From contig CAYWWY010000001.1 of the NCBI GenBank assembly GCA_964462525.1, positions 183,074 to 247,073 on the forward strand: DNA of 64,000 nt. The letters are read 5' to 3'. A model generated the notes under the pieces. The model searched no databases, was not told where the DNA came from, and saw only the letters and a program-made list of their open reading frames with translations. Positions 1 to 61,942 of the stretch are shown here, piece by piece. This stretch comes from an uncultured Thermotogaceae bacterium. GTDB lineage: Bacteria > Thermotogota > Thermotogae > MWEM01. Position numbers and translations under genes: made by a program. Position 1 is the first letter of the stretch, and each line of letters begins with the position of its first letter.

Positions 1-1595
1 ATGACATACAGTGCGTAACCGAAGGAATCGTACCCTCTATAGTACAGACGATCATCGACAACAAGCGGTTGGAATGCGCCTGTTTGTACAGAGGTATGCT
101 GATGGAAGGTCAGCTGGTTCAGATCAATGGAATAGATTTGGTATATTCCTTCCAGGTCCCAGGAAAAAAAGAGAGATGATTCGGTTAGGAAAGGATCGAT
201 CATCGCGTGATCAGAAGAATGGAGGCATATGAGCGCGCCATCCTCCCAAAGATACAGGTGTGTCTGTTCGTTGAAGGTAATGGAAAGCCCGATTCTTGGG
301 CCGTTAACGGAAATTCCGTTGATCCAAAAGTCTGGATTGCCATGCATCAGAGTTACTTCTTTGCTCGTATCGATCGTATGAACCATTAGGCTCGTTCCGC
401 CTTTATCGAGTTTCAGGTAAAGGATCGTACTTTCGTCCAACCACCGAACCTGGATGACCCGACCCTTTTCCGAAGCTTTACGCAAGACCCCATGATCGTC
501 TTCAAGAAAGAGTTCTTGACTGTACTGCTCCAAACCGTCGCCAAAACCATAGACTGCCGCAACTCTTCCTGCAGGGGAAATGTCAAAATCGATGGGCGTT
601 GGATCCAGGCGAAACACTCGACTCGTTCCATCGGGTTCGATCTGAAGCCACCGGGGCAGCATCTGGTCTGGCCTGTCAATCACCACGACCGAATTCCCAA
701 ACAAACGAGCCGTCCCAGAATGCGTTCGGCCCTTTTGAACTGGTTGTCCTTCATAAATAGGGTCGGGGATTGAAGCCTTTACGCGGTCGGATACCCATAC
801 CGCCCATTCTATAAGAAAGTCAGCCCAATCCATACCGGTAACCCCTTTTATGGCTTGAAAGAGGTTGTACCGATACTGAGTACCGTAGGTTTGAAAAAAA
901 GCCCGATATGCTTCGATCCCAAATCGGTCAATCATAAAGGCGAAAAAAAAGGCTCCATAAAGATAATTGTCTCCCACCGGTGTATATACAGGAGTCTGCA
1001 TCCCCCCCGCCAGTTGGAGACCCCGAAACCGTTCATCAAGGATGGCTGCTCGAAGGAACATTTCGAATCGGGAATCGTGAAGCCTCCCTTGATCAAAAAG
1101 AAGCGTTTCGGATACGATCGATCCGCCTTCGTGCATCCAGGATGGGGTAAATGCTGTATCGAAAAGCGTAGCCACAGGATTTCCGAATATCCGAAGCTGG
1201 TCTTTCAAGACACCCGGTTTATCAGCAATTAAGATATGGGTCAATTCGTGGGCAAATACATAAGGAACCCACCATTGATAATGGTTTTTCCCAATCCGAG
1301 TATCTGATCTGTTGACATAAATTGCCGTCATATGAGAAAAGATATCTGCGTAAGCGTTGGCATAGTCCCCGTCATCGACTAGATAGACGCGTACCCTCCG
1401 ATGTGGTTCAAATCCGTAGAAATCGCACAGATATTGGTAGATGCCAGGCCCCTCATGGTACAACTGCAGAGCGAAATCTTCCAACCCCTCTTGGTAAATG
1501 ATATCAAAGGGTTTTGTCCAGATTCGATAGTATTGGATCGCAAATGATGCAGTAAACGTCATCAGGCATACGAGAAAAAGGACCCATCTCTTCAT
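1..1595 (-). CDS. Secreted HExxH (zincin-like) metallopeptidase-family protein with a C-terminal beta-propeller-like region. Partial: the C-terminus runs off the window start.
   Basis: Manual translation of the minus strand from the ATG at 1595 gives a stop-free ORF to position 1. It has an N-terminal signal peptide (MKRWVLFLVCLMTFTASFA) and the motif FAHELTHILIAD (HExxH). The C-terminal part is rich in beta-strand/WD-like segments. It is absent from the ORF track, presumably because no stop lies inside the window. Confidence 0.55.
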   Translation of the reverse strand, partial: MKRWVLFLVCLMTFTASFAIQYYRIWTKPFDIIYQEGLEDFALQLYHEGPGIYQYLCDFYGFEPHRRVRVYLVDDGDYANAYADIFSHMTAIYVNRSDTRIGKNHYQWWVPYVFAHELTHILIADKPGVLKDQLRIFGNPVATLFDTAFTPSWMHEGGSIVSETLLFDQGRLHDSRFEMFLRAAILDERFRGLQLAGGMQTPVYTPVGDNYLYGAFFFAFMIDRFGIEAYRAFFQTYGTQYRYNLFQAIKGVTGMDWADFLIEWAVWVSDRVKASIPDPIYEGQPVQKGRTHSGTARLFGNSVVVIDRPDQMLPRWLQIEPDGTSRVFRLDPTPIDFDISPAGRVAAVYGFGDGLEQYSQELFLEDDHGVLRKASEKGRVIQVRWLDESTILYLKLDKGGTSLMVHTIDTSKEVTLMHGNPDFWINGISVNGPRIGLSITFNEQTHLYLWEDGALICLHSSDHAMIDPFLTESSLFFSWDLEGIYQIYSIDLNQLTFHQHTSVQTGAFQPLVVDDRLYYRGYDSFGYALYV

Positions 1596-1612
1596 TCGCG
1601 TCTCACCTCGCA

Positions 1613-1642
1613 ATAAAAAAGCGGGCTTGCGCCCGCTCTTTT
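1613..1642 (-). terminator. Rho-independent terminator of csp, bidirectional in shape.
   Basis: GCGGGC-ttgc-GCCCGC hairpin at 1621-1636, flanked by an A-run at 1615-1620 and tctttt at 1637-1642. On the minus strand it reads as stem plus TTTTTT immediately after the csp stop. Confidence 0.8.
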
Positions 1643-1656
1643 AGAATTCGCTGTAT

Positions 1657-1860
1657 TTATCCAAGGATAGAAACGTTTGCAGCTTGGGGTCCCTTGGTTC
1701 CATTTTGTACTTCGAACTCTACTTCTTGCCCTTCTTCGAGCGTTCGGAATCCATCCATATTGAGGGCGCTGAAGTGGACAAACACGTCATTGCCGTCGTC
1801 CTGAGAGATGAATCCGTAACCCTTCTTGGCATCAAACCACTTTACCTTACCTTTTAACAT
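1657..1860 (-). CDS. cspA: Cold-shock protein, CspA family, 67 aa.
   Basis: [33 protein letters not shown]... carries the canonical cold-shock-domain RNP motifs. The ATG at 1860 was chosen over the upstream ORF-track start. A ~240-nt untranslated leader follows, as is typical for csp genes. Confidence 0.9.
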
Positions 1861-2100
1861 CTTGTTCCTCCTAGAAACTTTGTTTTCCGTAAATACGGTT
1901 CCGAGGCATATCATACACGAAAAAACCCTCCTTGTCAACCCCTTGGATTTTTTTGAAACCGTTTGACGGAAATGGTGAACACTCAGCCAGACGGATCGTT
2001 AAAATGTTTTGGAATGTCCGGTATCCTGAAAAAAAATCAAGCTCATATTCAGGGGGTAAGCATTCGGTGAATTCGTACTGACTCGAAAAAAGGAAAAAGG

Positions 2101-5067
2101 CTAAAAATGGGTCTTTGCGATACGAAAGCCCCGGTTATTTTGTGAATTGCCTAGGGACCATTTATGAAACCGGTAAGCCAAGCGACAGTCGCCGGCATTG
2201 TTGTTCCAATGGCCACCTCGGACCATTTTATTCGAGTGGTGATCTAAGTGGCCAATAGGATTGGTCTTTGTTTCGGTTGTGTAGACTTGATAGGAGTCAT
2301 GACACCATTCCGTTACATTACCGGTCATGTCGTACAATCCCAATTGGTTCGGCGCCTTTTTTCCTACGGGTTGGGTACTCCCTCCAGAATTGTCCGTAAA
2401 CCAACCCACATCATCGATATCGTCGCCTCCCGCGTACAGATACCTTGGCGGAATCGGTAAAGCCAAATTGCCACCGCTCGCCGAATACTCCCACTCGGCT
2501 TCTGTAATCAGCCTATATCCAACTACTTGAGTAATATCTTCTGTTTTGGATCCCGCCGCGTCCAAAAAACTCCCTTGTTCTGGTTCGCCCTCTAAAATAT
2601 AGGCAACAGGCAATCCTTGTTGTTCGCTTAACCAATTACAGAAGGCGATCGCATCCCACCAAGTCACATTAACTACCGGACGGCTGCCTCTTCCCCAATC
2701 TTCATCACCAGGTTTAGCTCTATCCGTATCATCGCAGAAAGCATCGTATTCATAAAAGGTCACTGGATACGTTCCCACCCAAAAATCGTACGTCAGGTGA
2801 ACGGTATGAGTAGGTCCAGACTCGTGCAAATCTCCCTCTTCGTCACCCATTTGAAAAGTTCCTCCATAGACCAAGATCATTTCTGGGGGTGTGACCGTAA
2901 TCCGTTTTATGCCTTCCACTCCGGAACCATCTTTGGCGGTGGCTTTTACATCAACTATTCCTGTTGTCAGTCCCTTAAGAATACCTGTTTGGGTTATCTC
3001 GGCCCGATTCTCTCTGGGGGAGATCCCTCCAACATTTTCCACAGACCATGTGACCTCTTTGTTGGTTGCATTCTCGGGATTTACCTCCGCGATCATCTGA
3101 AGGGGTACCCCTACCCCAACAGATACTCTGCCTCCTTCTCCTGATACGGTAATGGCCGTTACAGGTTTATGAAAGGTAGCCACCAAGGTCACATTCTTTG
3201 CGGGCATAACATAGGAGAAGTTTTCTTCGACGCTTACTAGCTCCCCTCCGGACGTTCCAAACGTCCAATGGACAAAATCAAACCCCTCTGCGTCATCCGC
3301 ACGCACCTCAACCTGCGCGCCGGCAGGGTAATTCCCTGCGCCTTCTAAAACACCTACACCTTCCGGGTTTCCCTTCAAGGTCAAAGCAAAGATCTGTTCG
3401 AAGATGGCCAATAGGGTCACATTTGCCGCTGGCATGGTGAAGGTGTGGGTAGTGTCTGTGCTGACCGTGCTTCCAAAGCTATCTTCCCACTCAACAAAGC
3501 GATACCCAGCATTGGGTGTTGCTGTGATCTCTACCTCTGCTCCCGCTGCATAGGTGCCTCCTCCGGTTACCGTGCCCCATGTGTTGTTGTTTCTATTCAA
3601 TGTTAAGGTAAAAGCCTGTTCGAAGATGGCCAATAGGGTCACATTTGCCGCTGGCATGGTGAAGGTGTGGGTAGTGTCTGTGCTGACCGTGCTTCCAAAG
3701 CTATCTTCCCACTCAACAAAGCGATACCCCGTATTGGGTATGGCTGTGATCTCTACCTCTGCTCCCGCTACGTATGCTCCTCCTCCGGTCACGGTACCCC
3801 ATGCGTTGTTGTTTCTATTCAGGGTCAGGGTGTGAGCATCGGGTGGCAACTCTTCAAAATTTGCTACCAATGTCACGTTTTCTGCCGGCATCATGTAGTT
3901 GTAGTTGGCTTGTGTGCTGATTACCGAACCACCGTGGGTCCATTGGACAAAGCGGTAGCCTGCTGTTGGTGTGGCCTGGATGTTGGCAACCTGTCCAGCT
4001 GCATAGGTTCCTCCCCCAGCGACTGTTCCCCAAGCGTTGTTGTTTCTATTCAGGGTCAGGGTGTACAACTCAGCAGGTACTTCTTCAAAATCCGCTACCA
4101 ATGTCACATTCTCAGCAGGCATCGTGTAGCTGTGGTTGGCTTGTGTGCTGATGATCGTACCACCGTGGGTCCAATGGACAAAGCGGTAGCCCGCTGTTGG
4201 TGTGGCCTGGATGTTGGCAACCTGTCCGGCTACATAGGTTCCTCCCCCAGCGACTATTCCCCAAGCGTTGTTGTTTCTATTCAGGGTCAGGGTGAATGGC
4301 TGCGTTTGAGTGTTAAAGGTCCACACATCGCCTTCTGTCAATTCTCTTGGTTCGCTGGTTCTCCCGTCATCAGCGTCGACTCGCCAGAAGTATTGAGTGT
4401 CGTATGCCAATTCGGGCAGAGGGTGGTTCGTTTCGGTGGTTGTGGCGATCCATTCCAAATCGTCTTCCTCTGTGCTTAGGTAGACCATGTAGGTAAGTGG
4501 GTCGCCCTCAGGATCACCACAATCCCATCGCAAGACGACCCCTTCGATGGGTTGGTTTTCTGCGCCATCTTCCGGCTGGGGGTTGAATGGCTTGAGTGGG
4601 GGTTGGTTGAAGACTTCTATCCATAAGGTTGCTTCTTTTGTATTGTCATTTCTTGGGTTGATTTGATCGGGCGGGATGAGGGTGGCGCGGGTGGCGCGGA
4701 TGATGACCTCGTAGATTCCCGACGCCGTTGCGCTCACGTCGATTTCGTAGACTAAAACGCCATCGACAAGCTCAGTGGCTTGCGCCTGCTCTCGGAAGAT
4801 GACGGTGAACTCGACCCCAACGATGGGGGTGATGGAAAAGGAGAAGGTGTCTTCCCCCTCCAAACTGAATGGGGAGTTTTCGTCGATGTGGTCAGAGGCT
4901 GCCGCATCTCCGTCGCCTGTAATAATCTGCACCAACGCGTCCAGGACTTCGGGATCTTCCAGATTAGGAAGGACGATCTTGGGGATATCTCGGCTTACGC
5001 AGGAGAAAAGAAGAAAGACCATTATCAAGACCAGTGTCAGGATCGCAATCCGTTGTTTCGTGCCCAT
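2101..5067 (-). CDS. Large surface lipoprotein. It carries a Big_2 (bacterial Ig-like) domain, 4-5 tandem Listeria-Bacteroides (InlB B-type) repeats and a C-terminal formylglycine-generating-enzyme (FGE/SUMF1-like) domain.
   Basis: Lipobox LLFSC follows a hydrophobic signal peptide. The ATG at 5067 has GGAGGTG 8 nt upstream; the ORF-track start at 5103 is a GTG. The repeats read TLTLNRNNNAWGTV(A/T)GGGTY(A)AG..., a Big_2-like segment reads VTAITVSG...KATAKDGSG, and the C-terminal RGGHWNNNAGDCRLAYRF...NRGFR is FGE-sulfatase-like. Confidence 0.75.
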   Translation of the reverse strand: MGTKQRIAILTLVLIMVFLLFSCVSRDIPKIVLPNLEDPEVLDALVQIITGDGDAAASDHIDENSPFSLEGEDTFSFSITPIVGVEFTVIFREQAQATELVDGVLVYEIDVSATASGIYEVIIRATRATLIPPDQINPRNDNTKEATLWIEVFNQPPLKPFNPQPEDGAENQPIEGVVLRWDCGDPEGDPLTYMVYLSTEEDDLEWIATTTETNHPLPELAYDTQYFWRVDADDGRTSEPRELTEGDVWTFNTQTQPFTLTLNRNNNAWGIVAGGGTYVAGQVANIQATPTAGYRFVHWTHGGTIISTQANHSYTMPAENVTLVADFEEVPAELYTLTLNRNNNAWGTVAGGGTYAAGQVANIQATPTAGYRFVQWTHGGSVISTQANYNYMMPAENVTLVANFEELPPDAHTLTLNRNNNAWGTVTGGGAYVAGAEVEITAIPNTGYRFVEWEDSFGSTVSTDTTHTFTMPAANVTLLAIFEQAFTLTLNRNNNTWGTVTGGGTYAAGAEVEITATPNAGYRFVEWEDSFGSTVSTDTTHTFTMPAANVTLLAIFEQIFALTLKGNPEGVGVLEGAGNYPAGAQVEVRADDAEGFDFVHWTFGTSGGELVSVEENFSYVMPAKNVTLVATFHKPVTAITVSGEGGRVSVGVGVPLQMIAEVNPENATNKEVTWSVENVGGISPRENRAEITQTGILKGLTTGIVDVKATAKDGSGVEGIKRITVTPPEMILVYGGTFQMGDEEGDLHESGPTHTVHLTYDFWVGTYPVTFYEYDAFCDDTDRAKPGDEDWGRGSRPVVNVTWWDAIAFCNWLSEQQGLPVAYILEGEPEQGSFLDAAGSKTEDITQVVGYRLITEAEWEYSASGGNLALPIPPRYLYAGGDDIDDVGWFTDNSGGSTQPVGKKAPNQLGLYDMTGNVTEWCHDSYQVYTTETKTNPIGHLDHHSNKMVRGGHWNNNAGDCRLAYRFHKWSLGNSQNNRGFRIAKTHF
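3390..4300 (-). repeat. Intragenic tandem DNA repeats: two near-identical ~222-bp units followed by two near-identical ~231-bp units.
   Basis: The ~110-nt string cgaagatggccaatagggtcacatttgccgctggcatggtgaaggtgtgggtagtgtctgtgctgaccgtgcttccaaagctatcttcccactcaacaaagcgataccc starts at 3399 and again at 3621. A second unit (ttctgccggcatcatgtag...cagggtcagggtg) recurs at ~3876 and ~4110. These encode the InlB-B-like protein repeats. Confidence 0.85.
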
Positions 5068-5827
5068 ACATTTGCACCTCCAGAGCATGATTTGTTTAGT
5101 CACGCATATGATGGAGGATTTGTGGACTACAAAAAATCCGATTGCTGTATATCATAGGAACGAAAGGGAATAGAAAAGAAAACCGCTACAAGAATGAATG
5201 AGAAATAAGGAGCTTTTTGCTGGAACTCGAATCCTCACCGCAAAATCCCCCTTCTTTTCATCTTTTCATTTTACCATTTTGTGTACCTATTGTCAAGGAT
5301 CCGAAATGCTTCATAAATAAAAAGTACCCAAAATAGGATCTATTTTGAGAGCAGGGGACCGAGGCAAGGAGGAGCGTGTTCACATGGGGGAAAAATCCGT
5401 ATGGGAGAAATACGGGAAGTTGTTGAGAAGAGTGCGAAAAGATATCGAGAAAGCAATGACAGGTCACCCAAAACACAGATTTTGAACGAGTGTGACGAAA
5501 TGACGGGGTGCGAACGTCATTATGCAGCAAAGAACTTTCGTACAGAGCATTTGAGGCTTCGAGGGTTAAAAGGCGAAAAAAGAAGCCCAAAAGGGCAAAA
5601 GTCCAAGAAGATCCACAGGCATTTACAGACACCATATCACCGATGGCTGGAATTATCTTGGACCTCTCTAGATAAAAAAGAAGGGCTCCGCGGGGAAAGA
5701 TTTCAGATAAGTAATATACTATATAATACCATATATTCATACGAATCATGTCATATGGTATGGGTGAAATAAGATCAGATGTCCCTCCGTCAATAATATT
5801 GGAAAATCAAAATCGGAGGTGAAAGGT

Positions 5828-6370: not shown

Positions 6371-7126
6371 CTAGAATGGAATCCAATAAGCACGACCATC
6401 AGGTGTTCGTTGCAGAAACCCATATTCGATCAAGTATCGGCGCACCATGACATAATCATCAATTACGTTCATCAGAATTCGATTGATTTCGGATTCCTCA
6501 TATTTGATCCCTTTCTTCAAATGTTCCTTTATTATGTGTCTCAAGATGATCCATTTAGATTTTTGCTTGTTTGGAAAAACAATGATCTTTCCATTTCGGT
6601 CAACATACTTTTCTATCATTTTCTGCGCCTCTTCTTCTGTCACCGAGTATCGATCATCGATCATAGTTGCAGTTTTTGGGTATTCTACGAGCTTGTCTTC
6701 TCTTTTTTCCAATACTTCCACTAATTCCCACAGGGCAAGGAAAATCCGTGCCTGTTTCGCTTTTTCTCGGAGCCGAAAGCGGTGATTTCGGACAGTGGAT
6801 TCGCTTACCTTCATCTCCTGAGCAATATCCCGATTGCTTTTCCCATCATGGAGAAAAGTAAGTAAGACCGTTTGGGTTTCGCTCAACACTGAAAAACGCT
6901 GATCTAACTCCAACAGAAAGTTCCACGTTCCTCCGTGATCACATCGAATATGAAGATCGATTGCCTTTTCAGCAAGGTATAGATCACCTTCGACCTCATA
7001 GACCTTCCCTTCTTCATATACTCGTCCACAGACCAGGCAGATCCATTTTTTCTCTTCCGGAATCCAAAAACTTCCTGCTTTTAGATCTTCAGCAGGGACC
7101 TTCCAAAACCATTCATTCAGATCCAT
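6371..7126 (-). CDS. Putative transcriptional regulator with an N-terminal Cys/His zinc-ribbon-like motif, a central LuxR/GerE-type HTH and an uncharacterised C-terminal domain.
   Basis: HTH segment LLTFLHDGKSNRDIAQEMKVSESTVRNHRFRLREKA. N-terminus reads CLVCGRVY...HIRCDHGG. It is transcribed divergently from the metF-metH operon. Confidence 0.55.
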   Translation of the reverse strand: MDLNEWFWKVPAEDLKAGSFWIPEEKKWICLVCGRVYEEGKVYEVEGDLYLAEKAIDLHIRCDHGGTWNFLLELDQRFSVLSETQTVLLTFLHDGKSNRDIAQEMKVSESTVRNHRFRLREKAKQARIFLALWELVEVLEKREDKLVEYPKTATMIDDRYSVTEEEAQKMIEKYVDRNGKIIVFPNKQKSKWIILRHIIKEHLKKGIKYEESEINRILMNVIDDYVMVRRYLIEYGFLQRTPDGRAYWIPF

Positions 7127-7393: not shown

Positions 7394-7402
7394 TGGTATA
7401 AT
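7394..7402 (+). promoter_or_regulatory. Extended -10 (TGGTATAAT) of the metF-metH operon promoter.
   Basis: tcaTGGTATAATc lies 45 nt upstream of the metF ATG. The same TGGTATAAT element recurs in front of two other genes in the window. Confidence 0.5.
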
Positions 7403-7447
7403 CATCGCAGAATTTGGTGACGAGATCCTTAGATATTGGGGGTACTT

Positions 7448-8347
7448 ATGAAAAACAGAATAGCAGCATTCATGAACAGCCTATCGAGACCCTTTTCCTT
7501 GGAAATCTTCCCGCCAAAAAAAGAACATCAAAAAGCTTTTGAGTTTGTCTTGAGAACGATCGAAGCCCTCTGCCCCACGAACCCTTCATTCATCAGCGTA
7601 ACTTATGGTGCAGGCGGATCGAATAAAGGAAAAGTCGTGCAGATCTCTCACGAAGTGCTGGAAAGAGGAATCCTCCCGCTCAGTCATTTGACAGCGGTCG
7701 GATTTTCGAAGGAAGACGTCCGACTGGTTCTTGACCAGCTGCATGAAGCGGGAGTGCGCGCGATTCTCGCTTTGAGGGGAGATATTCCGAAAGGGGTTAC
7801 TTACCCAGATGGGGCGTGGAAAGACTTTCACCTTGCCATAGACTTGATCCGGCTCGTGCGAGAAGATGGCCGATTCTGTGTGGGGGCTGCAACCTATCCG
7901 GAGGGCCACCCTACCCATCGCGATCCAGATCGCTCGGTCGAGCATTTTGCTATCAAAGCATCTGCTGGGGCTGATTTTTTTATCTCCCAAATGTTTTTTG
8001 ACAACTCTTGCTTCTACCGTTTCGTGGATACAGTTAGAAAGCGCGGGCTTTCTCATCCAATCATTCCCGGAATCATGCCTTTGGTAAAAAAGATCCAAAT
8101 CCAGAAAATCCTCGAATTATCTGGGGCAATGATTCCCAAAACTCTGCTTGAATCAATTGAACGGTATCAGGATGACCCAGAAAGCTTTTGCCAAGCAGGG
8201 ATCGATTTTGCAACTCAACAGGTCCTCATGCTCAGAGATCAAGGAATCCCCAATGTTCACCTCTATACAATGAATCAACCTGATCCGATTCTGAAAATAC
8301 TCACACAAGCAAGTCTTTTGGATGAAAAGGAGATCCACAATGGATAG
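7448..8347 (+). CDS. metF: 5,10-methylenetetrahydrofolate reductase (MetF).
   Basis: FSLEIFPPKK...ISVTYGAGGSNKG...HLTAVGFSKED...ILALRGDIPKG matches MTHFR conserved blocks. The ORF-track start at 7436 is a TTG, so the first ATG (7448) was chosen. Confidence 0.8.
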   Translation: MKNRIAAFMNSLSRPFSLEIFPPKKEHQKAFEFVLRTIEALCPTNPSFISVTYGAGGSNKGKVVQISHEVLERGILPLSHLTAVGFSKEDVRLVLDQLHEAGVRAILALRGDIPKGVTYPDGAWKDFHLAIDLIRLVREDGRFCVGAATYPEGHPTHRDPDRSVEHFAIKASAGADFFISQMFFDNSCFYRFVDTVRKRGLSHPIIPGIMPLVKKIQIQKILELSGAMIPKTLLESIERYQDDPESFCQAGIDFATQQVLMLRDQGIPNVHLYTMNQPDPILKILTQASLLDEKEIHNG

Positions 8348-10682
8348 AGCAGAGTTTTCGGACCGAATTCAAAAAGAAGTGATTCTTTTGGACGGTTCAT
8401 ATGGCGCAAACCTCCAAATCAAAAGGTCGGATGCCCGCGCAGTGGAAATGTACAATATCAAAGACCCCGATTCTGTATTGGACCTTCATAAGGCTTATGT
8501 GCTCGCTGGGTCCGATCTGATCCTTACGAACTCCTTCAGCGCAAATCCACTTAAGCTAAAGATGCTTGGATTGGAGGGACTATTCGAACCAATAAATCGA
8601 GCCGCTGTTCATATAGCGAAGAAAGCTACCCAAGGAAGGAGTTGGGTATTTGGAGACATCTCTTCTTCGGGGCATTTTGCGCAACCATTTGGAGAGCCTT
8701 CTTTTGAAGAGTTGGAAGAATGCTTTTCTCAACAAGCCCTGGTTTTATTCGATTCTGGAGTGGATGGAATCCTTTTGGAAACCTTTACAGACATCAAAGA
8801 ACTGAAAGCTGCTATTTCTGGTGTGCGAAAGATCGCTCCCCATATCCCTTTAATCGCTTCGATGACCTTTACCGAGGAAGGAAGAACAGTATCGGGAACA
8901 CCGGTTCACGGATTCGGGATCCTAATGGAAGATTTGGACGTGGATGTGGTCGGGATTAATTGTACGCTTGACCCCAAGCAAATTATCCCGATTGCGCGTT
9001 CTCTGATGGAAGCAACTTCAAAACCCATCTGCGTCCAACCCAATGCAGGGAAACCGATCACGATTGGCCAAGAATCTCGATACGATCTGAGTCCCGATCA
9101 GTTTCGGCTTTATATGGAAGATTCTCTGGATTTGGGGGTATCTATGGTTGGTGGCTGCTGCGGAACAAACCCGAAGCATATCCACGAATTGCGGTTGCTC
9201 CTCGAGATTTACCATCGAAGCGAAACTAAGAGATTGGTTCACCCAAGGCTTTTTGTCACATCACGAACTTACTGTATTTCACCTGCCCCGTTTATGATAA
9301 TTGGAGAACGGATCAACCCTGCTTCTCGGAATGATTTTCAGAAAGAGATTGCGGAGATGGATATGAGAACAGTAATCCGTGAAGCAGCCAGCCAAGAACA
9401 AGAAGGAGCCGACGTATTGGATCTGAATTTGGGAATTGAAAAAGGCTTAACGCCTGATCATATACGAAAAGCAATCTGCGATTTGGATCGGGCGTCTTGC
9501 GTACCTCTTTCCATTGATATCCAAACGCGGGAATTACGGGAAACTGCATTGAGAGAATACCCAGGTCGCGGAATTATTAACTCCGCACGGATTACCCCAA
9601 AAAGCTTGGAATTTGCTATTCATTGTCTGAAGCAGTACGGAGGGTTAGTCATCCTATTGGGTATGGGAAAAACAGTTCCCGATACAGCCCTCGAACGGTT
9701 TCAATTGATCCTTAATGGGATTCAAGAAATGGAAAACGCTGGCATTTCTCGTGACCGTATCTTGGCTGATCCCTTGGTCTTGACAATTGGAGCGGGAAAC
9801 AAACCAAAAACCACGCTAGAAGCAATCCGATTGTTACATGAACAAGGGATTCGAACTACATTAGGTCTGTCCAACCTGAGTTACGGGATGAGAAATCGGA
9901 GCCATATCAATGCCGCCTTTATTTCTCAAGCCATAAGTGCTGGATTGGATAGCGCGATCATGAATCCAGCGGAAAAAATCGTCATGAATGTTTTAGATGG
10001 CAGTTTAACCCTACAAGGAAAAGAACGAGAAAACACCAATATTGGCGTGGATGACCCATTGATTCGGTCTTTGCTGCATGGAGATCTTCATACTGCCGAC
10101 CGTTTGATCCAAGAAAAGCTTGAAACTGGCCGTAAATCGGATATTGGTCAATCGGTTCTTGGAGAATCTCTTCAAGAGATTGGAGAGATGTACGCCAACG
10201 GAACCTTGTTTTTGCCTCATCTTCTTATGGCTGCTCAAACCGCAGCACCAATCTTCGACCGTTTGAACACCCTAGTAGGAAAACGGAGTCGGGCGATTGG
10301 CCGCGTTTTGCTGGCAACTGTTGAAGGGGACGTACACGATATTGGAAAGAAAATTATCGGGACTGTTTTGCAGAGTGGAGGATTTGAAGTGGTAGATATT
10401 GGAATCGACCAGTCGTCTCAGGAGATCCTTGATGCGGTTCTTAGGGAAAAGCCGGATATTGTCGGTTTATCAGCGATGATGACGACCACTATTGGAAAGG
10501 TCGAAGAGTTTTCCCGACTCCGCAAAGAGGTTCATCTTTCAATTCCCTTAATCTGCGGCGGGGCATCTCTTAATGGAGAGCTTGCCAAGAGCTTTGGGTG
10601 CGAAGGATATTGCGCCAATGCCTCAGGTGTAGTAAAACTGTGCAAGCAACTCCTTGGGAAGGAAGTGGTTCCATTTGATTGA
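8340..10682 (+). CDS. metH: Cobalamin-dependent methionine synthase core (Hcy S-methyltransferase, pterin-binding and B12-binding domains). The AdoMet reactivation domain is absent.
   Basis: LLDGSYGANL...GGCCGTNP (zinc/Hcy site), then the B12-binding DxHxxG block VEGDVHDIGKKIIGTVLQSGGFEVVDIG. At 781 aa it is too short to contain the activation domain. ATG 8340 is preceded by AAAGGAG and overlaps the metF stop (ATGGATAG). Confidence 0.85.
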   Translation: MDRAEFSDRIQKEVILLDGSYGANLQIKRSDARAVEMYNIKDPDSVLDLHKAYVLAGSDLILTNSFSANPLKLKMLGLEGLFEPINRAAVHIAKKATQGRSWVFGDISSSGHFAQPFGEPSFEELEECFSQQALVLFDSGVDGILLETFTDIKELKAAISGVRKIAPHIPLIASMTFTEEGRTVSGTPVHGFGILMEDLDVDVVGINCTLDPKQIIPIARSLMEATSKPICVQPNAGKPITIGQESRYDLSPDQFRLYMEDSLDLGVSMVGGCCGTNPKHIHELRLLLEIYHRSETKRLVHPRLFVTSRTYCISPAPFMIIGERINPASRNDFQKEIAEMDMRTVIREAASQEQEGADVLDLNLGIEKGLTPDHIRKAICDLDRASCVPLSIDIQTRELRETALREYPGRGIINSARITPKSLEFAIHCLKQYGGLVILLGMGKTVPDTALERFQLILNGIQEMENAGISRDRILADPLVLTIGAGNKPKTTLEAIRLLHEQGIRTTLGLSNLSYGMRNRSHINAAFISQAISAGLDSAIMNPAEKIVMNVLDGSLTLQGKERENTNIGVDDPLIRSLLHGDLHTADRLIQEKLETGRKSDIGQSVLGESLQEIGEMYANGTLFLPHLLMAAQTAAPIFDRLNTLVGKRSRAIGRVLLATVEGDVHDIGKKIIGTVLQSGGFEVVDIGIDQSSQEILDAVLREKPDIVGLSAMMTTTIGKVEEFSRLRKEVHLSIPLICGGASLNGELAKSFGCEGYCANASGVVKLCKQLLGKEVVPFD

Positions 10683-11445
10683 ACTCGATCAACTTTCTTT
10701 TTCTTACGAACGAGAATCTCCATTAATCAACAATTTATCTCTCGTGATTTCTTCTGCGGAATTTTTTGGGATCATTGGCCCCAATGGTTCAGGAAAAAGC
10801 ACATTGCTGAAGTTGATCTGTGGGCTTTTACGCCCTGATAAAGGAGAAATCCGAATCGACGGAGCAAGTACTGCCCGCACTTCGAGAAAAAAGCTTGCTC
10901 AAAATGTTTCTGCGGTATTGCAGGACTTCTTGCCCGTATATGATTTCGCCGTTCAAGACATAGTTCATATGGGACGGATCCCTTATCACAACCCTTTCTC
11001 CGAGCAACGATTCGAAGACTATCAGATCGTCCGAAAAGCGATTGAGCAAACCCAATTGAATGGTTTTGAAAAACGACGGTACTATACGTTAAGCGGGGGA
11101 GAAAAACAGCGAACGATCATTGCAAAGTGCTTTGCTCAACAAACCCCGGTTATTCTTTTGGATGAGTTCATTGCTCATCTCGATTTGGGGCATATACAGC
11201 AGGTTCTGCAAACTGTTTCATATAAGAATGACAAAGAGAAAATCACTATCGTCGGGGTTTTTCACGATATTAATATAGCCGCTCTTTACTGTGATCGGAT
11301 CTGCGTCTTGAACCATGGAGATCTCGAATGCATAGGGACTCCAGAAGAGGTGATTCAGAAAGAACTCCTGCAATCCGTATTTTCTGCTCAATGCGAAGTG
11401 ATTGATCACCCGGTTCTTCATAAACCCCAGGTGGTCCTTTTGTGA
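10654..11445 (+). CDS. ABC transporter ATP-binding protein (FepC/BtuD/FhuC-like NBD) with no cognate permease or binding protein in the window.
   Basis: Walker A GPNGSGKSTLLKLICG, signature LSGGEKQRTIIAKCF, Walker B ILLDEFIAHLD and H-loop are all present. The start is uncertain (TTG at 10654 or TTG at 10675) and overlaps the metH stop. The stop overlaps the next ORF as ATGA. Confidence 0.75.
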   Translation: MGRKWFHLIELDQLSFSYERESPLINNLSLVISSAEFFGIIGPNGSGKSTLLKLICGLLRPDKGEIRIDGASTARTSRKKLAQNVSAVLQDFLPVYDFAVQDIVHMGRIPYHNPFSEQRFEDYQIVRKAIEQTQLNGFEKRRYYTLSGGEKQRTIIAKCFAQQTPVILLDEFIAHLDLGHIQQVLQTVSYKNDKEKITIVGVFHDINIAALYCDRICVLNHGDLECIGTPEEVIQKELLQSVFSAQCEVIDHPVLHKPQVVLL

Positions 11446-12593
11446 ATGATTTGATCGATGCGTTGTATGACGCGCAGTACTTACATCGATTGCATGACTT
11501 GAGAGCGAAAAGCCAATGGGCTATCGATTCTTTATCGCAGGCACGTCTCAAGAAAATGGATGATTCGGGGTTTTCCTATATCATTAATAAATTGGATAAT
11601 TCGTTAAAAGAGAAGCTTCGAGGAGTAGACCTTCTTACGGTTATGTTCGCATGGGACAAGCTTTTCTACGGTTCTGGAAAGTTTTCCGATCGCCTTGAAG
11701 CGTGTTGTGACTTATTGGATCTTTCTGATTGGGATTTGGGGTTTTTGCTCTTCTTTACCGCTCCAAAAAGCTTTTTCCCCCCTAACCCTTTGGTTATCGC
11801 TTATTTTCAAAAGATCAAATCAACGATTGCGGAAACCTCTTTCCTTCAGTTCACCCAGACAGCCTCAAAGATTTGGAAGACCCGAAGAGACCATGACGTT
11901 TTTCCATCACCGATGGAACTGTATGCTGCGTTATTGACTATGAGGGATCGTTATGAGAACCCGAATCCTTTTAGTTCTTTTGTAGACACGCATGATGAAC
12001 GACTTTTTTCGGAACTCATCGATAGCATACGGAATCTGAGCTTGTATAGACTGAATCCAATGCAGATCACCTGGATTAGAGACTTATGCAGCGACTTTTC
12101 GGATCCGCAAAGATTCCGTCTTATGGAACGGATGCGCCAGGAAAACATCCATCCCTATATCCGAAGGATTATAACGAAGCAACCCAAACAAGGAGCCATC
12201 GTTGACGGGAGCAACATCATTTTTTCCGGTCTTTTGCAACCAGATCCCCTTCGACTCAGAGACCTAATGAATGCTTTGGGCGCTTTCCCCACCCTTTTCT
12301 TTCCGATCCGCTTTGTGTTCGACGCCAATGTGGATTACATCATCCCAACCAACCATGCATTTTGGAACACCCACTTTCGAAGCAATCCTGAGGTTGTCCG
12401 TTTTTCTCCAGCGGACGAATGGATAATCCAAACAGCATACGAGCAAAAATACGCTGTCATATCCAATGATCAGTATCGGCAGCATCAGAACTTGGGGTTG
12501 CCTATATACCCCTTTCTTCCTCATCAAGTGCGCCTTTGTCGGAAAGAGGACGCTAGACCAGGTACGATATCAAAAAAGCGGTCAAACCGGTAA
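11442..12593 (+). CDS. Hypothetical soluble protein with a C-terminal Zc3h12a-like NYN (PIN-like RNase) domain.
   Basis: The C-terminus reads GAIVDGSNIIFSG...RFSPADEWIIQTAYEQKYAVISNDQYRQ. This matches the IDGSNV ... VFTP..DD...A....IVSND.YRD pattern of Zc3h12a-type NYN domains. No TM segments. It is translationally coupled to the upstream ABC ATPase. Confidence 0.5.
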   Translation: MNDLIDALYDAQYLHRLHDLRAKSQWAIDSLSQARLKKMDDSGFSYIINKLDNSLKEKLRGVDLLTVMFAWDKLFYGSGKFSDRLEACCDLLDLSDWDLGFLLFFTAPKSFFPPNPLVIAYFQKIKSTIAETSFLQFTQTASKIWKTRRDHDVFPSPMELYAALLTMRDRYENPNPFSSFVDTHDERLFSELIDSIRNLSLYRLNPMQITWIRDLCSDFSDPQRFRLMERMRQENIHPYIRRIITKQPKQGAIVDGSNIIFSGLLQPDPLRLRDLMNALGAFPTLFFPIRFVFDANVDYIIPTNHAFWNTHFRSNPEVVRFSPADEWIIQTAYEQKYAVISNDQYRQHQNLGLPIYPFLPHQVRLCRKEDARPGTISKKRSNR

Positions 12594-13707
12594 TTGCCAA
12601 GATGGGCGCCATCCGGATCAGGGTTTTATACAAATCCGTTTGAAAGTAATTCACAGTCAGTACGATACACAGATGAACCGGAGACATTAGGACTCCAGCT
12701 ACCGCTCCAAAATACAGCCACAAAGGATCTGCGCCTAAAACCAGAAGCAAAGGGGCAGAGATTCCGATAGCGCTTTGAGTGATACCTGTTGCAAGCCCAA
12801 TTAAAAAGGGTAAGAGGAAGGTAAGAACGTTCAAGTTCAACCCCAATTGTTGTAAGTCTGTTGCGATGTCTGCAGCAAGCTGAACGTGTTCCAAATAAGC
12901 TTTATAGGCAAAAAATGAAAAGAGCAAAAAGAAAACAGGGAAGCGTTTGGCGGTTTTTTTCATGGATGGGATCAAGGAATGGTATCGTAAGCAAAAATAG
13001 ACTCCTACCGTTATCAACAGAGCCAGATACCCCTCCATCCGAAATCCGAGAATCAACACCCCTGTGATCGCAATCACCAACAAAACCCACAATCCCTTCA
13101 GGGAATGCAGACCGGCTTTTTTCATTTTGGGCAATGAAATTCCATTTAAGTAGATCCACCCGCCTACTACTGCTGTGAGAAAGATTGGGAAGGCCTTAAT
13201 TGAAAAGGACGCCATATTGATTGACGCCAAAGAACAAATAATAATCAGAGCAGGATACAAGGGCCAAAAAAACTCTACAGCGTGCCGAAACCAGAAGTTG
13301 GCCAGCACAAGATACTCGTTGGAGGAATCTTTCCCCACCATTTTCACTATGGGCGCTGTAAACATGGCTCCGCCAGGCATTGGCAAAAAACCGATCATTA
13401 ATGGCATAAAAGCAACAGATGTTTTTGGATCAAATAGATTTTGAACGGAATGGGAGAATTTTTGGTCATCTCGAGAGTGTGACAAGCCTTCGCTGAAAAG
13501 AAAGATCAGAAATACCGGAATTACCGATCGATATAAAGCGATATCGGAAAAAGGTTCAATCAAACTCAGGAAAAGGGCATTACCATCCCAACGAAAAACG
13601 ATCACAATCATGATTGCTGCGAATACTGCCATAAAGATCGATCGGCTCAATTTCTGAACCAGTACAAGAACCAATAGAGACACCAAAATGATTGCGAAAG
13701 ACAACAA
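12553..13707 (-). CDS. Polytopic membrane protein or permease of unassigned family (~10 TM).
   Basis: 384 aa, strongly hydrophobic throughout. Its 3' end overlaps the convergent NYN ORF by 41 nt. Confidence 0.5.
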   Translation of the reverse strand: MLSFAIILVSLLVLVLVQKLSRSIFMAVFAAIMIVIVFRWDGNALFLSLIEPFSDIALYRSVIPVFLIFLFSEGLSHSRDDQKFSHSVQNLFDPKTSVAFMPLMIGFLPMPGGAMFTAPIVKMVGKDSSNEYLVLANFWFRHAVEFFWPLYPALIIICSLASINMASFSIKAFPIFLTAVVGGWIYLNGISLPKMKKAGLHSLKGLWVLLVIAITGVLILGFRMEGYLALLITVGVYFCLRYHSLIPSMKKTAKRFPVFFLLFSFFAYKAYLEHVQLAADIATDLQQLGLNLNVLTFLLPFLIGLATGITQSAIGISAPLLLVLGADPLWLYFGAVAGVLMSPVHLCIVLTVNYFQTDLYKTLIRMAPILAITGLTAFLISYLV

Positions 13708-29337: not shown

Positions 29338-31740
29338 TTATTTCTGCAAATCGATCTCTACTTCATCCCCTTCGCATAAAGGATCCAAGAATGCCGCGTT
29401 CTTCCCATTTAGACGGAGAGAATACCCTCGTAGGTTGCTCACATCAAGCCTCATTAATGGGAAAATATCCACAATCTTTGCAGTACCTTCGATCGATTCG
29501 ATAAACACATTCGATCCTTCGTACAGGGTGCTGTCCAATGTTCCTGGGGTATCATCGATCGTGATTTGGTAGGAGGTGACAGGGATTTTCGTTTCCTTTC
29601 CGTTCACCATGCACGTACAATATCTGATTCCGAAGTCTTTAAGGAGCATCCGAACGGTAGGCATCTTCTCCCGGGTTTTTGTGGTTATTACGGACCCCTC
29701 TACAAGGGGGGAGTTTGGATTAAGGGGGATCGCATCTTGGGAAGGGAGAATTTGGTGGCATTCTGTTTCTTTCCACAACACCGCTTTTGGCATGCCATTC
29801 ATCAGTAAACTGACATACTCTTTATGCTGTAGGTTCAAGTGATCGAGAACATCTTGTAGGTTCACTTGACGTGAAAACTGGATTTTGTCTTTGTCTTGTA
29901 CCTCGACATCTCCGTGTACTTCATTATCGTTTAAAAAGACCCGCGGCCAGATTTCATATACTGATCCGTTGACTAAAACCGGAATTTTATCAATAAACGA
30001 AGACAAGAATACGGTTGGGGTATGACCTTCTTCTCCCGGCTCAAATTGAATGATATCGCCATGTGATAGCCTTGTCCGAGTATTCGCTTCCTCTCCGTTT
30101 ACTTGAATCTTGCCCGCTCGGCCTATTGTTCCTCGAACAAATTGCAGCGAACCGTTGACTTCAAAGGCAATGGCCGGGCCTGGTTTTCCGATAATATCTT
30201 CCACACGATATCCCATTTGAAGAAGGGCTTGCATGACTGTATTCTTCCCGTCAATCGCCATTAAGTCAGTTGGGACACCATTAACGGTTACTCGAACAAA
30301 GACACTCCCTGTATGCGTCCCAACGCAATTCGCAATTCCAACAGGAGTGATGTATTCGCTTCCTTGCAAAAGATGGTTCGGGTCTATAACTGTAGGCAGA
30401 TTTTCGACCATCTTCAATGCTACGCGGCTTTGGGGAAGACCCAACTTTTCGGCAATCAGTTCAGAAAAACCTTTGACTTTCGCTCCTCCACCTACAATCA
30501 AAACGGCGGATGGTGGCTTTCCATTAAGGTTCAAAATTTCTGATGTAATTTTTGATGTGATTTCTTCCAATACCGGCATAACCATCTTTGTCCATTCTTC
30601 TTGATTGATTGTGACAGAACTATCTAAGATATCGGAAACTACGATCTCCGAAACCAAAGGATCTTTGCTCATTTCCCTTTTTACCTGTTCTGCTGTTTGA
30701 AAATCGAGTAAGTATTGCTCACATAAACGCTCTGAAATCTCGTCACCCGCCAACGGAACCATCCCGTAAGCAATAATCGTCCCGTCTCTTGAAATCGCAA
30801 TGTCGCTCGTTCCTGCACCGACGTCAACTAAAGCGATGTTCAGTTTTCTTAGGTCTGTGGGAACCACCAAACTCATTGCTGCAATCGGTTCTAGCGTGAT
30901 ATGCCTCGGTGTAAGGGTCGTTTTTTCTAAAACATTCATCATCGCATTGACAATGTACGCTGGAAGAAACGCGGCGATCACCTTAACGGACGCTTCTTTT
31001 CCCCTTTGACCTTCGAGATTCCTTATCCACTCTCCATCAAGAGAATAGTAAAGAACGGAATATCCCACACAGTACATCTCGTGGTTTTGAACATCAAGTT
31101 TATCTATGGACTCACTAATCGCGTTCATTTCCAACATCCGAACAGAGTCGGAAGAGATCGCATGATCACTTGATACATCCAAACGGGCTTCTCCGAGAGA
31201 AGTTTTCAAAAACCGTCCAGCCATTGCAACGGAAACCGAATGAAGCGGAAACTTGCTTTGCGATTGGAGGTGATCGGTCACCACGCGTACGATTCGGCTT
31301 ACCTTCTGAACATCATGAATCGCGCCATCAAGCATGGCTCTTTCCTCATGTTCCATCACAGCCACAGAAAGAATTTCTATGGATTCTTCCCGTTTGGCAA
31401 CAATCAACCCTTTTACACAACGTGTGCCAATATCGAGAGAATAGATGATATTTTCTGTACTGTTTTCCTTTTCGATCAAAACCACTCCTCGCTCAGAAAG
31501 AGTTATCCTCTTCACTGCATGTATTATATCACGATTTTCGTTCTCAAAAAACGGCCCTAAAGGAATTGTTTTCCCCCAATCACCCGTTTTGATTTCTTCT
31601 CTGATCGGGGCATATCGGAACCATGCGAAATCTACGGAAGGCATGCGAATTCGAAGCGCCGCATACATGGAGAACTGATCTAGAATTCGTGGTATAATCT
31701 GGTCAAAACAGGGAAGGACCGGTACAATTGAACGAAACAA
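29338..31740 (-). CDS. FtsA/actin-fold (ASKHA) ATPase domain fused to a ~330-aa C-terminal region made of 4-5 tandem ThiS/MoaD-like (beta-grasp) motifs. The exact start is uncertain.
   Basis: ATPase motifs IYSLDIGTRCVKGLIV...VAMAG... and NIALVDVGAGTSDIAI...VLIVGGGAKVKG are FtsA-like. C-terminal segments repeat a pattern such as VNGVPTDL..., EVNGSLQF..., IQVNGEEANTRTRLSHGDIIQF, VLVNGSVYEI...GDVEV, MVNGKETKI, and LRLNGKNAAFLDPLCEGDEVEI. The ORF-track start at 31740 is a TTG; internal ATGs at 31668 and 31644 are alternatives. Confidence 0.55.
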   Translation of the reverse strand: MFRSIVPVLPCFDQIIPRILDQFSMYAALRIRMPSVDFAWFRYAPIREEIKTGDWGKTIPLGPFFENENRDIIHAVKRITLSERGVVLIEKENSTENIIYSLDIGTRCVKGLIVAKREESIEILSVAVMEHEERAMLDGAIHDVQKVSRIVRVVTDHLQSQSKFPLHSVSVAMAGRFLKTSLGEARLDVSSDHAISSDSVRMLEMNAISESIDKLDVQNHEMYCVGYSVLYYSLDGEWIRNLEGQRGKEASVKVIAAFLPAYIVNAMMNVLEKTTLTPRHITLEPIAAMSLVVPTDLRKLNIALVDVGAGTSDIAISRDGTIIAYGMVPLAGDEISERLCEQYLLDFQTAEQVKREMSKDPLVSEIVVSDILDSSVTINQEEWTKMVMPVLEEITSKITSEILNLNGKPPSAVLIVGGGAKVKGFSELIAEKLGLPQSRVALKMVENLPTVIDPNHLLQGSEYITPVGIANCVGTHTGSVFVRVTVNGVPTDLMAIDGKNTVMQALLQMGYRVEDIIGKPGPAIAFEVNGSLQFVRGTIGRAGKIQVNGEEANTRTRLSHGDIIQFEPGEEGHTPTVFLSSFIDKIPVLVNGSVYEIWPRVFLNDNEVHGDVEVQDKDKIQFSRQVNLQDVLDHLNLQHKEYVSLLMNGMPKAVLWKETECHQILPSQDAIPLNPNSPLVEGSVITTKTREKMPTVRMLLKDFGIRYCTCMVNGKETKIPVTSYQITIDDTPGTLDSTLYEGSNVFIESIEGTAKIVDIFPLMRLDVSNLRGYSLRLNGKNAAFLDPLCEGDEVEIDLQK
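31690..31698 (+). promoter_or_regulatory. Extended -10 (TGGTATAAT) for the PP-loop ATPase gene.
   Basis: cgTGGTATAATct lies 30 nt upstream of the TTG start. GGGAAGGA is positioned as the RBS 8 nt before the TTG. Confidence 0.5.
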
Positions 31741-37792: not shown

Positions 37793-39205
37793 ATGAGACG
37801 AACAAAGATCGTTTGTACAATTGGAAACGTCACGGAAAAAGAGTCGATAATCGAATCCCTAGTTCAAGCAGGGATGAATGTTGCTCGGCTAAACACTTCT
37901 CATGGAAAGCCCGAAATGCATATTCAATTGATCCATCGGTTAAAAAAAATACGAGAACGGATGCGCCAACCTTTAGCGATTCTGCTCGATTTGGAAGGTC
38001 CGAAGATACGAACCGGTCAGTTCTGCGCGGATGAAATCCAATTGGAAGAAGGGCAGGAATTCGTGCTAACTTCTGACGAGATCTTGGGAAACGATCAATA
38101 CGCATCGATTAGCTATGCCAATCTCCCGAAAGAAGTCAAATCAGGAGATTTGATCCTCGTCAATGATGGTTTGGTTGGTTTGAAAGTGCTCGAAACAAAC
38201 GAGACTCAGATTAAAACCAGGGTTTTAAACTCTGGCGTCATTTCCCACAGAAAAGGGATCAACGTACCTGGTGTTGATATCGGATTGCCTCCGATTACAG
38301 ATAAAGACCTCGAGTATTTGAAGATCGCAGTTGAAGAAGGAATCGATTTTATCGCGCAATCCTTTGTTCGAAAACCTGAGGATGTAGAAGAAACAAGAGA
38401 CCATTTGCGAAGGATGGACTCGGTTATTCCCATCATCTCGAAAATTGAAACCAGTCAAGCTATGGCTTATCTTCAAAGCATCATATACAAAAGTGATGGC
38501 ATTATGGTTGCACGAGGAGATTTAGGAGTAGAGATTCCAACGGAAGATGTTCCAATCGCCCAAAAAAGGATAATTAAAATGTGCAACGCCCAAAGCAAAC
38601 CAGTGATTACTGCAACCCAGATGCTTGAATCGATGATTGTCAATCCTCGTCCCACTCGGGCAGAAGCCACAGATATCGCCAATGCCATTTTGGATGGAAC
38701 AGACGCCATTATGCTCTCCGGAGAAACCGCCATTGGAAAGTATCCTGTAGAAGCAGTAGGAGTAATGCACCGGATCGCGCAACGAACCGAAACCGTGCAA
38801 GCTGACCTCGGATCCAAGGCATGGAAGGATCTTCCCCTTATGGAGAATTCGGGAGAAGCGATTGCAAAAGCTTGCGTGCAGATTAGCGAACAGCTCAACG
38901 TTGGGGTTATTGTTGCGTCAACAAGCAGTGGAAGCACTGCTCGGAGGATATCAAAATACCGTCCCAAAGCCTTGATCATCGCGACAACCCCTAATGAACA
39001 GACATTTCAACGAATGGCCTTGGTCTGGGGAACAATACCTGTATTGATTCAAAAAACCATGGGTACAGATGAAATGATTGAGTTATCCGTTGAGAAAACT
39101 TTAGAGAGGGGAATCGCTCGAAAAGGAGATCTAATTATTATAACGGCAGGAATTCCGTGGGGAATTCCCGGGACGACAAACATGCTGAAGATACACCAAT
39201 GCTAA
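37793..39205 (+). CDS. pyk: Pyruvate kinase.
   Basis: MRRTKIVCTIGNVTEKESIIE...NTSHG...MVARGDLG.... Confidence 0.9.
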   Translation: MRRTKIVCTIGNVTEKESIIESLVQAGMNVARLNTSHGKPEMHIQLIHRLKKIRERMRQPLAILLDLEGPKIRTGQFCADEIQLEEGQEFVLTSDEILGNDQYASISYANLPKEVKSGDLILVNDGLVGLKVLETNETQIKTRVLNSGVISHRKGINVPGVDIGLPPITDKDLEYLKIAVEEGIDFIAQSFVRKPEDVEETRDHLRRMDSVIPIISKIETSQAMAYLQSIIYKSDGIMVARGDLGVEIPTEDVPIAQKRIIKMCNAQSKPVITATQMLESMIVNPRPTRAEATDIANAILDGTDAIMLSGETAIGKYPVEAVGVMHRIAQRTETVQADLGSKAWKDLPLMENSGEAIAKACVQISEQLNVGVIVASTSSGSTARRISKYRPKALIIATTPNEQTFQRMALVWGTIPVLIQKTMGTDEMIELSVEKTLERGIARKGDLIIITAGIPWGIPGTTNMLKIHQC

Positions 39206-61912: not shown

Positions 61913-61942
61913 GGGTACGCATTTTTCTGGGTGTGAGTTTTT

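Follow-up and report, generated by a model that had tools for sequence, protein, structure and literature searches.

What are genes for an ATP-binding cassette (ABC) ATPase and a putative nuclease doing behind metF and metH, and how is a methionine synthase that lacks its reactivation domain kept active? Both questions are raised by a 64-kb stretch of contig CAYWWY010000001.1 (the window) from an uncultured Thermotogaceae bacterium, in which metF and metH are followed on the same strand by genes for the ATPase and for a 383-aa protein with an NYN domain. The original prediction, made from the sequence alone, took the two appended genes for candidate accessories of MetH, which would either maintain its cobalamin cofactor or act on met mRNA. 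With moderate confidence we favour another answer: the operon would be a clade-specific chimera of three unrelated units (metF-metH, the ATPase gene and the NYN gene) rather than a dedicated support system for MetH.

A tightly coupled operon with a three-module MetH

The four open reading frames (ORFs) follow one another on the plus strand: metF (7448-8347; methylenetetrahydrofolate reductase, 299 aa, ATG after GGGGG), metH (8340-10682; three-module cobalamin-dependent methionine synthase, 780 aa, ATG at 8340), the ATPase gene (10675-11445; type II importer family, HmuV/FhuC/FecE/BtuD-like, 256 aa, TTG start, MIELDQL...) and the 383-aa ORF (11442-12593; GTG start at 11442). All junctions overlap, as had been predicted. 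The metF stop (TAG, 8345-8347) overlaps the metH ATG at 8340 and reads ATGGATAG, exactly as described before; the metH/ATPase junction reads TTGATTGA, with the metH stop (TGA, 10680-10682) inside the overlap with the ATPase start (TTG, 10675), again as expected; and the last junction, earlier given as ATGA, does overlap but has the letters GTGA (GTG at 11442, TGA at 11443-11445), the adjacent ATG being out of frame. Shine-Dalgarno-like purine runs, one per gene, are found 7-9 nt before the starts (GGGGG, AAGGAG, GGAAGGAAG and AGGTGG), and gene calls on identical public contigs place the same starts for the operon genes, including a metF of 299 aa. An ATPase start at 10654 (the longest ORF) was ruled out, as the public gene calls and the N-termini of the orthologues favour 10675. 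The four genes form a real, tightly coupled operon and are co-translated.

The same four-gene order with overlapping junctions was also found in two other species-level relatives, graded here by the identity of the 383-aa protein to that of the window (85% for loci L014 and L016, 60% for L012 and L013). Between the window and L014, the ratio of nonsynonymous to synonymous substitution rates (dN/dS, Nei-Gojobori) is 0.07 for metF, 0.13 for metH, 0.04 for the ATPase gene and 0.13 for the 383-aa gene, so all four genes are maintained under purifying selection.

Upstream of metF we read an extended -10 promoter element, TGGTATAAT (7394-7402, plus strand), which leaves a leader of ~45 nt to the metF ATG. 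The element is invariant across the three species, including where the DNA further upstream is unrelated; a two-hexamer promoter scan missed it because it has no good -35. According to Rfam, the leader contains no riboswitch (SAM, T-box or cobalamin) at gathering or E<=10 thresholds, which agrees with the earlier statement that no SAM riboswitch is present, and there is none anywhere in the relatives' loci. A riboswitch hidden in the 320-nt intergenic region was ruled out as well, given the negative Rfam result and the short leader that the invariant -10 leaves. Protein-based regulation by the product of a divergent gene had been suggested instead. This gene (6371-7126, minus strand; a GerE-type helix-turn-helix + DUF2087 regulator by Pfam) occurs in the 85% relative, but the 60% relative lacks it and yet has the same promoter; the suggestion is weakened by this, and control of the operon by the GerE-DUF2087 regulator is unsupported.

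MetF belongs to PF02219 (E=1.8e-73), with a TIGR00676 score (269.5 bits) under the 293.7-bit cutoff of that model. MetH contains S-methyl_trans, Pterin_bind, B12-binding_2 and B12-binding families by Pfam, with nothing C-terminal to the B12 domain. Its homocysteine-binding module (PF02574, E=8.7e-63) has the Zn-ligand motifs GINC and GGCCGT in the translation, and its pterin and cobalamin modules match PF00809, PF02607 (B12 cap) and PF02310 (Rossmann) and include a DVHDIG motif (DxHxxG). No fused S-adenosylmethionine (AdoMet) activation domain (Met_synt_B12, PF02965) was found in MetH by Pfam or NCBIfam. These are the modules that had been predicted, in a protein of 780 aa rather than 781 aa. 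Among solved structures, MetH is closest to the T. maritima MetH fragment 1Q7M (E=4e-138). The best 120 homologues, from a search of 5.8 billion proteins, all have the same four domains and are 632-803 aa long (770-803 aa in 116 of them); they come from Thermotogota (Defluviitoga, Petrotoga, Pseudothermotoga, Thermosipho, Fervidobacterium), Halanaerobiales, Synergistaceae, Cloacimonetes and others. In this best-120 list, the closest sequences outside the window's own clade are those of Anoxybacter/Halanaerobiales (50-51% identity, vs. 45-49% for other Thermotogota), a pattern that may hint at horizontal exchange of metH.

Since MetH has no AdoMet module, its reactivation must come in trans, as the original prediction had concluded. 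This conclusion holds and is not new: in T. maritima, AdoMet-dependent reactivation of TM0268 was shown to rely on TM0269, which is encoded separately (Huang et al. 2007, Protein Sci 16:1588, via PMC7857596, PMC3509894 and PMC10293825), and 'split MetH' is a further precedent in the literature. Like TM0268, the window MetH is a three-module protein of ~770-800 aa without an AdoMet domain, from the same phylum. Judged by its domains and homologues, it is of the known Thermotogota (TM0268) type, and its truncation is known and widespread. The window differs from T. maritima in what surrounds metH, with an ABC ATPase gene and an NYN gene after it and no TM0269-type gene in 64 kb.

Such a gene is found directly upstream of metF/metH in all three related Thermotogota loci examined (L037:6501-7064, L038:7451-8008 and L119:6557-7099), so that relatives of the window organism resemble T. 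maritima in having a 1J6R-like gene adjoining metF/metH. Two uncultured lineages (L037 and L119) have the order DUF4899 - 180-187-aa protein - metF - metH - DUF327, and in Defluviitoga tunisiensis (L038) the 185-aa protein overlaps the metH start. The 187-aa L037 and 185-aa L038 proteins match the TM0269 structure (PDB 1J6R) with E=3e-16 and E=3e-14, respectively, and the ~180-aa L119 protein shares 39-47% identity with them. The precomputed annotation assigns no Pfam family to these TM0269-type proteins, which came to light only via 1J6R. Using three query sequences, tblastn and maximum-sensitivity hidden Markov model searches found no TM0269-type gene in the window (six-frame), L012 or L014, and Pfam found no PF02965 on essentially every ORF of the window. 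As far as these searches tell, the gene must have been separated from the operon in the window's clade, and either lies beyond the window or was lost.

The solitary ABC ATPase

The ATPase matches PF00005 (E=2e-31) and aligns end to end with NCBIfam models of E=5e-68 to 4e-62, namely the heme model PRK13548 (E=5e-68), the corrinoid model PRK09536 and FecE. Its scores are all under the equivalog cutoffs (229 vs. 261 bits for heme, 215 vs. 537 bits for corrinoid and 210 vs. 375 bits for FecE), and therefore a substrate is not assignable. The motifs of an active ATPase are all intact, i.e., GPNGSGKST (Walker A), Q83 (Q-loop), the LSGGEKQR signature, ILLDE (Walker B and catalytic Glu) and FHDIN (H-loop); by these motifs the protein would be catalytically intact, and presumably it powers a permease encoded elsewhere. 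Like HmuV (4G1U), FhuC (7LB8), FecE and BtuD, it shows full-length similarity, ~40% identity to family members and the complete motif set; unlike them, it has no adjoining FecCD permease or binding protein, neither here nor in orthologues with long flanks. In the window, Pfam on essentially all ORFs found no FecCD permease and no Peripla_BP_2 binding protein, which agrees with the earlier description of the ATPase as an orphan.

An orthologous group can be recognised at 48-57% identity, the named members of which are all labelled Thermotogota metagenome-assembled genomes (MAGs), followed by a gap to the generic family at ~40%. We examined four other contexts of ATPase orthologues (L035, L036, L039 and L040), two of them (L039 and L040) being the true orthologues from a metagenome scan, the other 78 loci of which are generic family members and were left out. 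The orthologue directly follows the gene of an 835-847-aa protein in L035 and L036; in L039, the 140 nt of sequence upstream of it match a fragment of the 835-aa protein (by tblastn), with a convergent Fur-family gene downstream; and L040 has the order birA - ATPase - 577-aa ORF with a hydrophobic N-terminus. No metH, FecCD permease or binding-protein gene was found near the orthologue in L035, L036 and L040, or on the downstream side in L039. From these contexts the ATPase appears to be a conserved solitary gene, whose link to metH would be confined to the window's clade.

No firm Pfam family can be given for the 835-847-aa protein, one copy of which weakly matches Tricorn_N. A homologue is present in the window, as an incomplete gene truncated at the window start (15-1595, minus strand; tblastn 36-37% identity over ~530 aa, E=1e-103 to 1e-111), and a full copy is found in L012 (1282-3738, minus strand). 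The usual upstream neighbour of the ATPase thus lies ~9 kb off in the window and is inverted, with a cold-shock-domain gene, HSP20 and metF-metH in between.

Could the ATPase supply MetH with its cofactor? It would then be a BtuD-like motor with BtuC and BtuF encoded elsewhere; its position behind metH would couple B12 uptake to the one B12-dependent enzyme in view, and the NYN gene would be a passenger. The corrinoid model scores near the heme model, co-translation of the ATPase with metH has been kept in three species, the constraint on the ATPase gene is the strongest of the four, and BtuFCD importers are known in Thermotogales from the account in PMC3509894. However, related Thermotogota that have a B12-dependent three-module MetH have the ATPase orthologue away from metH, and Rfam detects no cobalamin riboswitch in the window or the relatives' loci. 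The best solved relatives of the ATPase are HmuV 4G1U (8e-43) and FhuC 7LB8 (2e-40), a heme and a hydroxamate importer ATPase, and E. coli BtuD is not among the solved matches at E<=1e-25; a Fur-family regulator by the orthologue in two contexts also points to metal or heme. We consider a role in B12 supply unlikely.

The Fur-family regulator is convergent to the ATPase orthologue in L036:10001-11542 and L039:141-1738, with DUF503 between them (annotated in L036, by tblastn in L039). L119 (2084-2521) has the same PheT-PTPS-MrpF-Fur block, about 4.5 kb before its TM0269-type-metF-metH cluster; in an ancestor, the ATPase and met loci may thus have shared a region.

The helical NYN protein and its gene contexts

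The last protein of the operon consists of an N-terminal all-helical domain (residues 1-245; 11442-12176, plus strand) with no assignable family and a putative C-terminal Zc3h12a-like NYN (PIN-like) nuclease domain (residues ~250-360; 12189-12521, plus strand). The whole protein matches no Pfam or NCBIfam family at normal thresholds. When the two parts were searched separately, as had been advised, the C-terminal part matched Pfam RNase_Zc3h12a (PF11977; E=0.0015, 18.7 bits, under the 23-bit gathering cutoff), and residues 1-235 gave no pentatricopeptide repeat (PPR) or other Pfam match; the predicted NYN domain was thus recovered, but no family for the N-terminal part.

The protein is rare, with 11 clusters only among 5.8 billion proteins. 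A filter-free profile search (1.84 billion representatives) retrieved 3 full-length sequences, ~30 shorter ones (~230-360 aa) sharing residues ~183-360, and then remote NYN proteins; the full-length family is confined to uncultured Thermotogota (MAGs). Among the 121 profile homologues (the three full-length representatives left out), 103 match PF11977, and PF16953 is touched by 5 remote ones only. Against the Protein Data Bank, the family profile matches ZC3H12A/B/C and KHNYN only. The AlphaFold model (predicted local distance difference test 83) is all-helical over residues 1-245 and alpha/beta over residues 250-360, the latter predicted as a PIN-like fold close to the solved ZC3H12 domains. 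Given the family profile, the transitive homology and the predicted fold, the NYN assignment made in the original prediction holds despite the weak single-sequence score.

The family alignment contains invariant DGSN, FDAN, SPAD and SND.YR motifs, with D255, D294, D325 and D343 invariant. As in Zc3h12a/MCPIP1 (Regnase), DGSN and SND.YR align with the D141/N144 and S242-D244 regions of MCPIP1. The equivalent of MCPIP1 D225 is Ala, that of D248 is Gln in the window's clade, and FDAN adds an extra invariant Asp. Unlike MCPIP1, the 383-aa protein has no CCCH zinc finger and has the N-terminal helical domain of unassigned fold. The closest folds are those of PRORP and the ZC3H12 stem-loop RNases; in contrast to PRORP (helical PPR + NYN), the protein showed neither PPR repeats nor a central zinc-binding domain, and the global TM-score is ~0.2. 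Thermotogota have an RNA-based RNase P, which makes an RNase P role of the 383-aa protein unlikely. From its sequence motifs and model, the NYN domain would be a metal-dependent endoribonuclease of the Zc3h12a/PRORP class, and the protein most likely cuts RNA, with substrate recognition provided by the helical domain. The predicted helical domain has no match to the MetH activation domain, and the model suggests that it is not an AdoMet-binding module.

At the end of the operon, a convergent gene for a DUF401/TIGR00529 membrane protein (12553-13707, minus strand) overlaps the 383-aa ORF by 41 nt at its 3' end (12553-12593), and no terminator-like hairpin was found between the two. The tail of the 383-aa protein (residues 370-383) is modelled with low confidence; it is seen only in this species and the 85% relative and is absent in most homologues.

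To see where the NYN genes of other species lie, we scanned one genome per GTDB species and obtained 19 loci, all from Thermotogota MAGs. Full-length homologues of ~40% identity are found in the order ABC2_membrane - mnmG - Mem_trans - NYN in 13 species loci, with no metF, metH or ATPase gene within 10 kb of the NYN gene in any of the 13, and a 14th locus (L025, a 1.8-kb contig) shows Mem_trans - NYN only. In the 5 Kosmotogaceae/Petrotogales-type MAGs (L030-L034), a 332-aa relative with SYD in place of the SND motif overlaps the queA start by 8-11 nt in 5/5 species (e.g., in L034 the relative is at 9392-10390 and queA at 10380-11393). In the complete 3.98-Mb genome OY763325.1, ~3 Mb separate the ATPase orthologue (0.69 Mb) from the NYN homologue (3.79 Mb). 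These contexts argue that the ATPase and the NYN protein are no module and that neither is generally linked to metH. They were also considered and rejected as a defence pair (PARIS, Septu or Gabija-like), given P-loop-local PADLOC matches only and the ~3 Mb between them in OY763325.1.

The proposed accessory role can be weighed against these contexts. In one version, the ATPase and the NYN protein would use ATP to maintain or reactivate the cobalamin; in the other, they would control met mRNA post-transcriptionally. Both genes are co-translated with metH in three species, and it is precisely the clade with the two extra genes that lacks a TM0269-type gene nearby. On the other side, co-occurrence of the pair with metH, which had been put forward as a test, is confined to the window's clade (three species-level lineages); in 13 + 5 other species the NYN gene lacks this linkage, as does the ATPase gene in the four other contexts examined, and the two genes are unlinked in OY763325.1. 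The ATPase is a canonical full-length transporter-type nucleotide-binding domain and not an ASKHA/RamA-type corrinoid activator, no structural similarity of the all-helical domain to the AdoMet activation domain was seen, and relatives carry a TM0269-type gene for reactivation. Control of met mRNA fares no better, as the relatives of both genes lie away from metF/metH. It had been said that finding the two genes elsewhere without met genes and with a permease would imply an incidental juxtaposition: they do occur without met genes (13 NYN loci and the ATPase orthologues), but a permease beside the ATPase was not found in L035, L036 and L040. Taken together, we regard an accessory function for MetH as highly improbable.

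The NYN contexts (mnmG, queA and metF-metH only) hint at a tRNA-directed nuclease, weakly so because each of them is lineage-bound. MnmG uses methylene-tetrahydrofolate (methylene-THF) and QueA uses AdoMet; MetF-MetH consumes methylene-THF and feeds AdoMet synthesis. The helical NYN protein could accordingly be imagined as an endonuclease for tRNA or structured RNA, tied to wobble-base modification that depends on one-carbon units and AdoMet, which would explain its placement by metF-metH. The three contexts are mutually exclusive and include U34 modification (mnmG) and queuosine-34 (queA), the overlap with queA is kept in 5 species, and the closest folds belong to PRORP (tRNA 5' processing) and stem-loop RNases. 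Bacterial PF11977 members are described as of 'unknown function in bacteria', and bacterial NYN domains are tied to tRNA/rRNA processing via gene neighbourhood, in the survey of Matelska et al. (2017, PMC5499597). However, each context occurs within one lineage only and may be inherited synteny, the immediate neighbour in the mnmG context is the Mem_trans permease, and the N-domain yielded neither PPR nor any other known RNA-binding repeat. This makes such a nuclease a decidedly unlikely explanation of the operon. A bolder version, in which a new bacterial tRNA or structured-RNA endonuclease tied to folate/AdoMet wobble modification was wired, together with the ATPase, to methionine/AdoMet supply while the reactivation gene was displaced simultaneously, is in our view very unlikely.

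Origin and surroundings of the operon

For a chimeric operon of unrelated units, the following course can be proposed. MetF would convert 5,10-methylene-THF to 5-methyl-THF, from which MetH would transfer the methyl group to homocysteine via cobalamin, and MetH in the oxidised cob(II)alamin state would be re-methylated by a separate small AdoMet-binding protein of the TM0269 type. In the ancestor of the three species-level lineages, a rearrangement would have put metF-metH, minus the reactivation gene, before the ATPase gene, and the NYN gene would have been placed behind the ATPase gene. The overlapping stop and start codons would then have locked the four genes into joint expression from a single conserved promoter and its short leader. 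The position of the usual partner of the ATPase, ~9 kb away and inverted, is the trace expected from a local rearrangement that dropped metF-metH before the ATPase gene. A rearrangement followed by fixation of co-expression is the most economical reading of the locus, although its direction may have been different.

Several points weigh against a chimera without function. The 4-14-nt overlaps have persisted in three lineages despite divergence of their proteins to 60-65% identity, and among the four gene products the ATPase is the best conserved (dN/dS 0.04); co-expression with metH could thus be under selection and not neutral. Corrinoid importers belong to the same family as the ATPase, which makes a B12-supply link to MetH possible, and the searches for the reactivation gene and for a partner permease covered ~64 kb of this genome. 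The three 'species' may share synteny by recent common descent, in which case the conservation says little either way. Were the co-expression useful, the best candidate would be B12 uptake by the ATPase, against which the Fur neighbours and the similarity to HmuV and FhuC argue for iron or heme. A chimeric origin with no specific link of the ATPase and the NYN protein to MetH is still the reading that we would choose.

Other features of the window were also noted. The sole Rfam match is a cspA thermoregulator (1612-1963, minus strand; 85 bits, E=5e-20), which spans the leader and coding region of the cold-shock-domain gene. A 1000-aa lipoprotein-like surface protein (2101-5103, minus strand) has five ~90-aa internal repeats (Flg_new type), Big_2 and a C-terminal FGE-sulfatase domain; it is present in the window species and absent at this position in L012, the 60% relative. 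An 800-aa protein (29338-31740, minus strand) combines, in an unusual architecture, a PilM/FtsA/MreB-like actin-fold ATPase region at its centre with a weak ThiS-like segment. ORFs without a Pfam family include 39157-40407 (plus strand), 5401-5772 (plus strand; 123 aa, called as a gene on public contigs) and 61471-61953 (minus strand).

As found, the operon matters little, as the truncated MetH is of a known type in Thermotogota and other anaerobes and the appended genes look like a lineage-specific rearrangement. What is new is modest and consists of the unusual operon composition, the small NYN family with its N-domain of unassigned fold, the conserved solitary importer ATPase and the displaced reactivation gene. 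For annotation, the relatives' loci serve as a warning, since Pfam alone would wrongly report 'no reactivation function' for many genomes with a three-module MetH. One may ask which permease the solitary group of type II importer ATPases works with, and the small Thermotogota-specific family that joins a helical domain to a Zc3h12a-class NYN domain, with its mnmG, queA and metFH contexts, is a testable lead.

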